From Eledone cirrhosa (Eukaryota): a DNA stretch of 64,000 nt. The notes below the pieces were generated by a model that saw only the letters and a program-made list of their open reading frames with translations, searched no databases and was not told the origin of the DNA. The first letter of the stretch is position 1. Each line of letters begins with the position of its first letter. The position numbers and the translations under genes are program-made. The stretch spans positions 37,138,001-37,202,000 of the forward strand of contig OZ024756.1 of the NCBI GenBank assembly GCA_964016885.1. The letters run 5' to 3'. Shown here in pieces: positions 27,601 to 27,823 of this stretch.

Positions 27601-27823
27601 TAACAAAGAGAGTGTAGTAAGATACCAGGTGGACCATAACGCACCAGAGTACTCAATACTTAGGGTAGTAAAGTGGGAAATAGGAAATGAGTCAGGACCC
27701 CGACGGCTGAGCTCCGGCCGTTTCGACAGCTAGATCCGAACTAAGCCGCCAGTAGTGGCTTAGTTCGGATCTAGCTGTCGAAACGGCCGGAGCTCAGCCG
27801 TCGGGGTCCTGACTCATTTCCTA
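27601..27823. mobile_element. Family C fold-back element centred on HHR stem II
   Basis: Palindrome ~27680-27823; each arm reads GAAA CGGC-CGGAGCTCA-GCCG TC GGGGTC; CUGANGA is absent. Confidence 0.85.

Follow-up and report, generated by a model that had tools for sequence, protein, structure and literature searches.

How does the 3' half of a ribozyme come to lie in a genome as two copies that face each other? The question is raised by a near-perfect palindrome at 27601-27823 of the window, the 64,000-nucleotide stretch of Eledone cirrhosa DNA analysed here (C17:37138001-37202000 of a 3.0-Gb genome), in which an arm with a tail and a short arm meet between (TA)n runs (Table 1); the window as a whole is rich in (TA)n. 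The sequence-only reading of this stretch proposed that nascent cDNA folds back on the ribozyme's own stem II and primes its own second strand. Our analysis leads us to favor a different model, in which such palindromes are built from two independent cDNAs that run off the capped 5' end of an RNA and are end-joined head to head; we consider this likely, with a probability of about 0.72. Throughout, the G of GAAA is position 0 and negative numbers lie 5' of it; contigs C1, C2 and C17 are distinct from subfamilies C1 and C2, and L-numbers denote sampled loci.

Table 1. Features of the focal palindrome, the other family C copies and one control in the window.
Feature	Coordinates	Strand	Extent or basis
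Tail arm, focal palindrome, subfamily C2	27603-27754	-	pLTR -30 to about +121
Tail of ~80 nt between two putative RT start sites (+40/42, +120/122)	27603-27682	-	arm-end counts
Hammerhead 3' half, tail arm: GAAA, helix III, GUC triplet	27702-27724	-	
Short (tail-less) arm, focal palindrome	27755-27821	+	-25 to +41
Initiator-like TTAGTT, putative function	27760-27765	+	sequence; conserved in 60 long copies
A at position -18, putative transcript start	27762	+	focal copy runs 7 nt beyond
Hammerhead 3' half, short arm: GAAA, helix III, GUC	27780-27802	+	
Left (TA)n-rich target flank	27557-27602		
Right (TA)n-rich target flank	27822-28200		continues beyond 28200
Diverged family C copy, ~20-nt inverted arm	6232-6349	+	left flank not TA
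Short arm to -18, then non-parental G (22985)	22924-22985	-	
Tail arm beginning at +20, lacking GAAA and helix III	22989-23088	+	
Short arm from -18, G at 23345, plus small inverted piece	23327-23404	+	
Lone tail arm (C2) to -19, lacking an inverted partner	26684-26824	-	
Palindrome: tail arm to -13 (-), short arm to -19 (+)	37553-37744		
Head-to-head short pieces, 52552-52604 (-) and 52979-53019 (+)	52552-53019		microsatellite between
Two adjoining insertions: tail/short palindrome; then short arm (to -24) and tail arm from +44	54054-54380		
Palindrome of short arm (to -12) and tail arm (to -25), with a duplicated piece where they join	56801-57003		
Family A1 control: TATAAATA at 27461, 30 nt before the short-copy start A (27491)	27461-27491	+	

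The focal palindrome belongs to a family, here called C, whose repetition is far beyond chance: its 29-nt core has 40,502 exact matches in the genome and the control none. GAAA-to-GAAA palindromes number 15,268 genome-wide with a spacer of 8-38 nt (control, 1) and 6,124 with a spacer of 39-69 nt (control, 61), and the resulting figure of about 21,000 is the sum of two spacer classes in which one locus may count twice. Family C copies are 3' halves of a type I hammerhead, arranged head to head between (TA)n runs, and the suggestion that they are retroposed hammerhead relics is right. All nine places that the sequence-only reading assigned to the family do carry it. It held, however, that the copies always fold back, and a GAAA-to-GAAA centre is found at six of the nine (6232, 23327, 27601, 37551, 54055 and 56800); at 22926 the partner starts from +20, at 26681 there is no inverted arm and at 52553 the partner lies about 375 nt off behind a microsatellite.

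The parent from which these fragments derive is an autonomous 3.5-kb Penelope-like element (PLE) with the motifs of the Hydra clade. An ORF encoding RT and GIY-YIG is followed by a 1.1-kb 3' UTR, all of it upstream of the ribozyme in the pLTR; locus L097 displays the layout as an inverted truncated copy, pLTR, ORF, pLTR and tail. At L095 a 710-aa open frame contains DIESYY, YRDD, FLDV and VIY..YIG, together with the Hydra-type motifs DKT at 109, CNCPDRSIC at 564 (CxCx5C), CNLC at 662 (CxxC) and CKH at 690 (CxH). One Cys lies between VIY and YIG, the presumed region of the CCHH motif that the Hydra clade lacks. The provisional placement rests on these motifs and on the insertion into (TA)n, which family C shares with the Hydra clade. 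A Pfam scan of the ORF was blank or weak (GIY-YIG, E=0.069) and a PDB search returned nothing for the long ORF; 402 homologues were found among 7,999 scored, and the Atlas clusters carry GIY-YIG and RVT_1. Junctions between pLTR and ORF occur 165 times, some of them in 3.54-kb tandem arrays of full units. Three such arrays (C1:91476607-91487367, C1:437200243-437210969 and C2:320551590-320558811) have periods of 3,531-3,544 bp and belong to one near-identical subfamily, probably the youngest source. A separate array at C2:356030076-356032003 comprises seven head-to-tail 299-bp units that span the pLTR-ORF junction; it could be retrozyme-like if every unit retains the full ribozyme.

The parent copies also restore the half of the ribozyme that the palindromes lack. 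Long copies read ACCCC-UUGANAA-G..CGGCUA-[35-40 nt]-UAGCCG.C-GAAA, with 3,219 genome matches; for subfamily C2 the long form has 86 matches against 2,485 for the core, a ratio that is rough since the patterns differ. An intact parent therefore exists, but with UUGANAA in its core and not the CUGANGA that had been predicted: the strict CTGANGA parent pattern has no genome match, and the 33 matches to a looser version are all junctions or chance. The true helix II pairs CGGCUA with UAGCCG, or CAGCUAGA with UCUAGCUG, across about 35-40 nt. Around the core stand three helices, a G10.1-C11.1 pair and a GUC triplet, as in a type I hammerhead. The minimum free energy fold yields the three-way junction, although it is not unusually stable (z = -0.38), and 93.8% of cells are paired among 26 long copies. 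In three helix II pairs both partners differ between C1 and C2, which amounts to essentially one subfamily split. We examined 60 long copies, selected by YTGANRA-type patterns, and parsed 56 for the ribozyme core: the 3-8 pair is U3-A8 in 48, a C3/A8 mismatch in 5 and U3/G8 in 3, and N7 is free, with four different bases found. Altogether the parent ribozyme reads as a complete U3-A8 hammerhead, for which self-cleavage is predicted from sequence. A subfamily with the core CUGAGAA, in which C3 stands opposite A8, has still been amplified (L062, L063, L074, L075, L088), and its members may not need the ribozyme or may use it in another way. Rfam gave no match to the parent ribozyme and, among 150 listed of 468 hits in the window, just microsatellite and hairpin look-alikes.

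The 5' half of this core is absent from all 65 arms in an unselected sample, 464 kb of C17 around and including the window; a looser pattern gave four core-bearing arms and the stricter test none. It is kept in 6 of the first 30 listed matches to the 29-nt core and in 1 of the first 30 listed C2 matches, L164 being a degenerate second. The loss of half the core was thus correctly recognized, though the motif lost is UUGANAA, and the window copies, lacking the 5' half, have no means of cleavage in cis. The "covarying stem II" (GACGGCTATTTC..GAAATAGCCGTC) did not survive: it is the mirror arm, an inverted copy of the same strand, in which any subfamily difference is necessarily repeated on the other side.

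Arms and junctions were sampled from one C17 region and from the first matches on contigs C1 and C2; the pair sample combines that contiguous region with the first 40 palindromes listed for the two spacer classes and with loci chosen by other patterns, one duplicate row having been removed ahead of the count. The arms have two fixed 3' ends, at +40..42 for short arms (160/189) and at +120..122 for tail arms (134/170). Each of these ends is fused to (TA)n, and a short arm is joined to a tail arm in 98 of 119 pairs. The 5' ends have a median of -17 in both arm types, with a 10-90% range of about -8 to -24. Because the two starts lie 80 nt apart, the shared median means that position and not length sets the end; a universal cDNA length ruler was also rejected, since short-arm lengths vary between families. 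The clustering of breakpoints is therefore real, yet neither exact nor universal. They gather around 17 nt 5' of GAAA but spread, with long head-to-head pairs broken anywhere from -79 to -3378. No two window copies have the same spacer, and 88 distinct junction types occur among the 119 pairs, in place of the single exact point at stem II that had been claimed. An insertion is present at the junction in 29 of 98 pairs, and 54 of the 69 without one have an overlap of 0-1 nt. Mutations distinguish one arm from the other in 65 of 98 pairs, which means that the palindromes are not assembly fold-backs.

What position sets the end? The modal 5' end is the A at -18, and the motif in which it lies resembles a promoter. 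Positions -20..-15 read T(T/C)AGT(C/T) in 54-59 of 60 long copies at each position, whereas -21..-26 are variable; the motif matches the fly initiator, given as TCAGTY (PMC1779564). Of 30 long copies of subfamily C1, 27 have a box of the TAT(T/A) type at a distance of 29-31 nt upstream, and no TATA-like box was found in 30 long copies of C2, the focal subfamily. Arms that end at -18 also tend to carry a G that the parent lacks. None of 60 long copies has G at -19, but an extra G precedes 21 of 33 arms ending at -18, compared with 34 of 158 arms that end elsewhere (p=8e-6); in a stricter set the figures are 10 of 14 against 12 of 72. Genome-wide, the base before a -18 end is G in 4,779 cases and A in 793, C and T being left uncounted because both are parental. 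The excess holds for short arms (14 G to 1 A) and tail arms (11 G to 3 A) alike, and by coordinates six loci among the first 100 listed matches have a G on both arms 0-6 nt apart. Since the copies have no common sequence 5' of the G, the G does not mark a subfamily. An extra G at the full-length 5' junctions of L1 insertions has been attributed to copying of the mRNA cap (PMC11702581), and the Penelope transcript is described as starting in the upstream pLTR (PMC2377424). From these features we infer a capped transcription start at A -18.

Several observations run counter to this start site. The focal arms overshoot it, reaching -30 and -25, and 20 of 196 arm ends (about 10%) lie at -23 or beyond. 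Many others fall short, at -11 to -17, so that the model has to assume trimming. A good number of arms end at -19 to -22, and T follows 16 of 18 ends at -21, which may reflect added A's. Some of the G's may instead be the final base of the other arm (L171, L222, L234). Finally, the pile-up starts at AG after pyrimidines in 4 of 5 families, which is splice-acceptor-like.

Other hammerhead-bearing families in the same DNA serve as controls, with the same layout of tail and short copies and pile-ups at other places. In family A1 the copies pile up on an A that precedes GAAA by 25 nt and lies 5' of an intact CUGAUGA; TATAAAT lies 30-33 nt before it in all four long copies, and four of five short ends carry the extra G. 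In G1 the pile-up lies about 60 nt before GAAA with TATAAAA at 30 nt in 2/2, but G at just 1 of 10 short ends, which counts against our model. F2, known from stubs and not from a long parent, piles up about 90 nt before GAAA, starts at AC and has G at 5/5; family E gives a mixed result, also a point against the model. These families break at their own TATA box or initiator, outside helix II and 5' of the whole core. Palindromes of family A with CUGAUGA occur in the window at 27178-27556, 29398-29470, 50378-50579 and 58750-58900; their tail motif is common to family C, and the copy at 27178 retains the TATA box. The TA-flanked families at 25780-25860, 30283-30847 and 23151-23320 are G, F and E, of which G has another UUGAAAA core and E a core-like CAGAAGA.

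We envision the following scenario. As motifs and copy ends suggest, transcription would start in the 5' pLTR at A -18, which lies in the loop of helix II, and an RNA with this 5' end lacks UUGANAA. At a cut in (TA)n, both DNA ends would prime RT internally, at +40/42 and +120/122, by analogy with the in vitro behavior of an anole element discussed below. Each cDNA would end at the cap after about 60 or 140 nt, often adding a C opposite it that is read as the extra G. Repair would trim and then join the two 3' ends, with 0-1 nt of overlap or small local insertions. In this run-off model the loss of the 5' core half is a side effect of where the family's transcription starts. Long copies would come from templates that do not end at -18, because of read-through in a tandem, because the RNA is circular or because RT jumps between templates. 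We further speculate, tentatively and with real doubt, that PLE reverse transcription itself opens with a strong-stop step: priming in the 5' pLTR, run-off at the cap and a jump to the RNA 3' end. The hammerhead cut at +23 would leave a 41-nt terminal repeat (-18 to +23) for the jump; successful jumps would copy the ORF and rebuild a promoter-bearing pLTR, and the palindromes would be failed jumps.

The most serious competitor shares the two cDNAs and the end-joining but has them stall at helix II, at an RNA fold or protein roadblock resembling a telomerase template boundary. The ends do lie within helix II, in its loop and 3' strand, the focal copy ends within an inner hairpin of the C2 loop, and A/T runs at some junctions suggest stuttering. 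A stall does not predict a G at exactly -19, however, and the other families break outside helix II. Nor is the helix a general barrier to RT: of 40 ORF-linked upstream pLTRs, 31 continue beyond -55, as scored by a strict pattern for 27 and by eye for 4, and the remaining 9 end at -2 to -27, the 40 coming from the first 100 of 165 junctions listed, with arrays collapsed and one already-sampled locus left out. This traversal tells equally against the proposal that helix II dictates the breakpoint, and we regard a stall there as unlikely.

Could the boundary instead be a splice acceptor, with cDNA copied from a spliced RNA that opens with a very short exon ending in GAG? C, A1, E and G1 all have a pyrimidine-rich tract plus AG at this point, which would fit, and an intron near the start is described for D. 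virilis Penelope (PMC2377424). Against this, there is no shared sequence 5' of the G; TATA boxes stand at 30 nt in A1 and G1, and F2 begins at AC rather than AG. We find this quite unlikely.

Single-strand snap-back, in which one cDNA or an antisense RNA folds and self-primes, makes a simple prediction about the arms. The 80-nt tail is present in the tail arm and missing from its partner, so the tail arm must have been the template, and a short arm copied from it could never reach further 5'. The short arm reaches further in 48 of 98 pairs, the tail arm in 34, with 16 ties; the excess is at least 4 nt in 24 pairs. In the unselected 464-kb region the corresponding counts among 16 pairs are 10, 4 and 2. 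At L097 an inverted arm spanning -1190..+42 adjoins a pLTR spanning -197..+120, an excess of about 1 kb, and near 22926 in the window the tail arm lacks GAAA and helix III, so that the short arm beside it cannot be its copy. Self-priming as published for head-to-head PLE palindromes (PMC3846280) lends the idea precedent, but as described there it too needs a copy no longer than its template and is under the same constraint. The arms are nearly identical, since 69 of 98 pairs show no more than two differences across 40 nt, and a few copies have a short inverted piece lacking a TA end (6232, 23327), as snap-back would allow. Against it also stand the junction overlaps, too small for priming, the position of the palindrome centres away from the natural helix II hairpin, the absence of the natural 5' strand of that helix and the extra G on both arms. 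Snap-back is contradicted for about half of the pairs and may apply to a minority of copies; as the general explanation it is very unlikely. The interpretation offered by the sequence-only reading is in this sense partly supported: the family, the palindromes, the core loss and the clustering stand, while "always", "exactly", the covariation and CUGANGA do not.

Some of the arm asymmetry could stem from deletions that arose afterwards in the centres of palindromes; these would blur the arm-length test, but not the test by start site and extra G. Taken as the whole explanation, with long inverted insertions losing their centres through cruciform processing, they are highly improbable: long head-to-head pairs exist and the junction overlaps and insertions look like repair, but the family-specific end and the extra G are unaccounted for, and lone arms end at the same place. 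A TA-targeting MITE, or a single short amplified master palindrome, would match the inverted arms with TA flanks, but is scarcely credible given the asymmetric 80-nt tail, the many junction types and the continuity with an RT-encoding parent, and MITE-type ends (symmetric terminal repeats around a fixed interior) are absent. A non-LTR retrozyme, described as head-to-tail tandem units each with a complete hammerhead (bioRxiv 10.64898/2026.07.22.740005), was also ruled out, the window copies being head to head and core-less.

Much of this has counterparts, and the element class, layout, tail and U3-A8 core are already known. Hydra-clade PLEs as described by Craig et al. 2021 (PMC8557442) share the single ORF with RT and C-terminal GIY-YIG, the (TA)n target, the pLTR hammerhead, partial tandems and an inverted 5'-truncated copy with a tail at one end; the clade is defined there by DKT, the CxCx5C linker and CxxC plus CxH in the endonuclease, all of which family C has. 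Family C differs from that description in reading RWR (position 27 at L095) for RWK, in a 3.5-kb unit against "generally <3 kb", in an 80-nt tail against 30-40 bp and in its tens of thousands of 200-nt stubs. The green anole Poseidon element PAc (Frangieh et al. 2024, PMC11167929) likewise has two internal RT starts that bound the tail, an AT-rich target and, in vitro, cutting and extension of both target strands; it is of another clade, and capped-end run-off and head-to-head joining do not figure in that account as available. Schistosoma Cercyon hammerheads (Cervera and de la Pena 2014, PMC4209133) have the same compensated core UUGANAA, and opposite-strand motif pairs are noted there; family C differs in having a real 5-bp helix III and a helix II insert of 35-40 nt with a putative promoter. 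Palindromic Penelope pLTRs of Adineta vaga (Arkhipova et al. 2013, PMC3846280) share the head-to-head junction and the TATA and initiator-like motifs, but self-priming on an antisense template is described there, whereas we favor two sense-templated run-off cDNAs. LINE-1 twin priming (PMC11702581) similarly has both target ends prime RT, two cDNAs end-joined and a cap-derived G, although the LINE-1 cDNAs cover adjacent parts of the RNA and those of family C both cover the same 5' 60 nt.

A further parallel is retroviral minus-strand strong-stop DNA, where synthesis close to the RNA 5' end yields a short cDNA that terminates by run-off at the cap. The family C product differs in being target-primed, made twice and fixed in the genome, with strand transfer hypothetical here.

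The origin of the inverted and tandem ends of PLEs is stated as open in the text of two earlier studies (PMC8557442, PMC2377424), and in the main text of a mostly open-access literature we found no account of capped run-off in PLEs; self-priming (PMC3846280) is the single published reading of head-to-head junctions that we came across. What is new is a testable account of how inverted stubs form, from capped run-off cDNAs on a sense template. Tens of thousands of copies allow both a simple logical test of self-priming and a search for a sequence mark, the cap G at the initiator. If the run-off model is correct, a long-puzzling inverted feature of these elements would be explained, the start site of any PLE family could be read from its stubs without RNA data, and what appears as 5' truncation would be in part complete copying from an internal start. 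The strong-stop idea would then become testable in the existing in vitro system and, if true, would supply a mechanism for pLTR regeneration and a role for the ribozyme.

A few minor features of the copies deserve mention. Runs of up to ~18 A/T stand at the palindrome centres of L045, L049, L249 and copies adjacent to the window, beginning at TTT just 5' of the putative start, possibly through RT stuttering or tailing. In rare cases (L230 and L021:1529-1563) the arms bear different subfamily marks, which suggests two template RNAs in a single insertion. About six tail arms begin at +20..+23, near the ribozyme cut site (22989 in the window, L034, L176, L200 and two more in the 464 kb), in a listing of tail-arm ends that is noisy because the references miss subfamily variants; as a weak hint, these are possibly run-off on cleaved RNA. 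Finally, degenerate TTAGGG-like tracts adjoin family C copies at 6000-6230 and 37300-37430 of the window.
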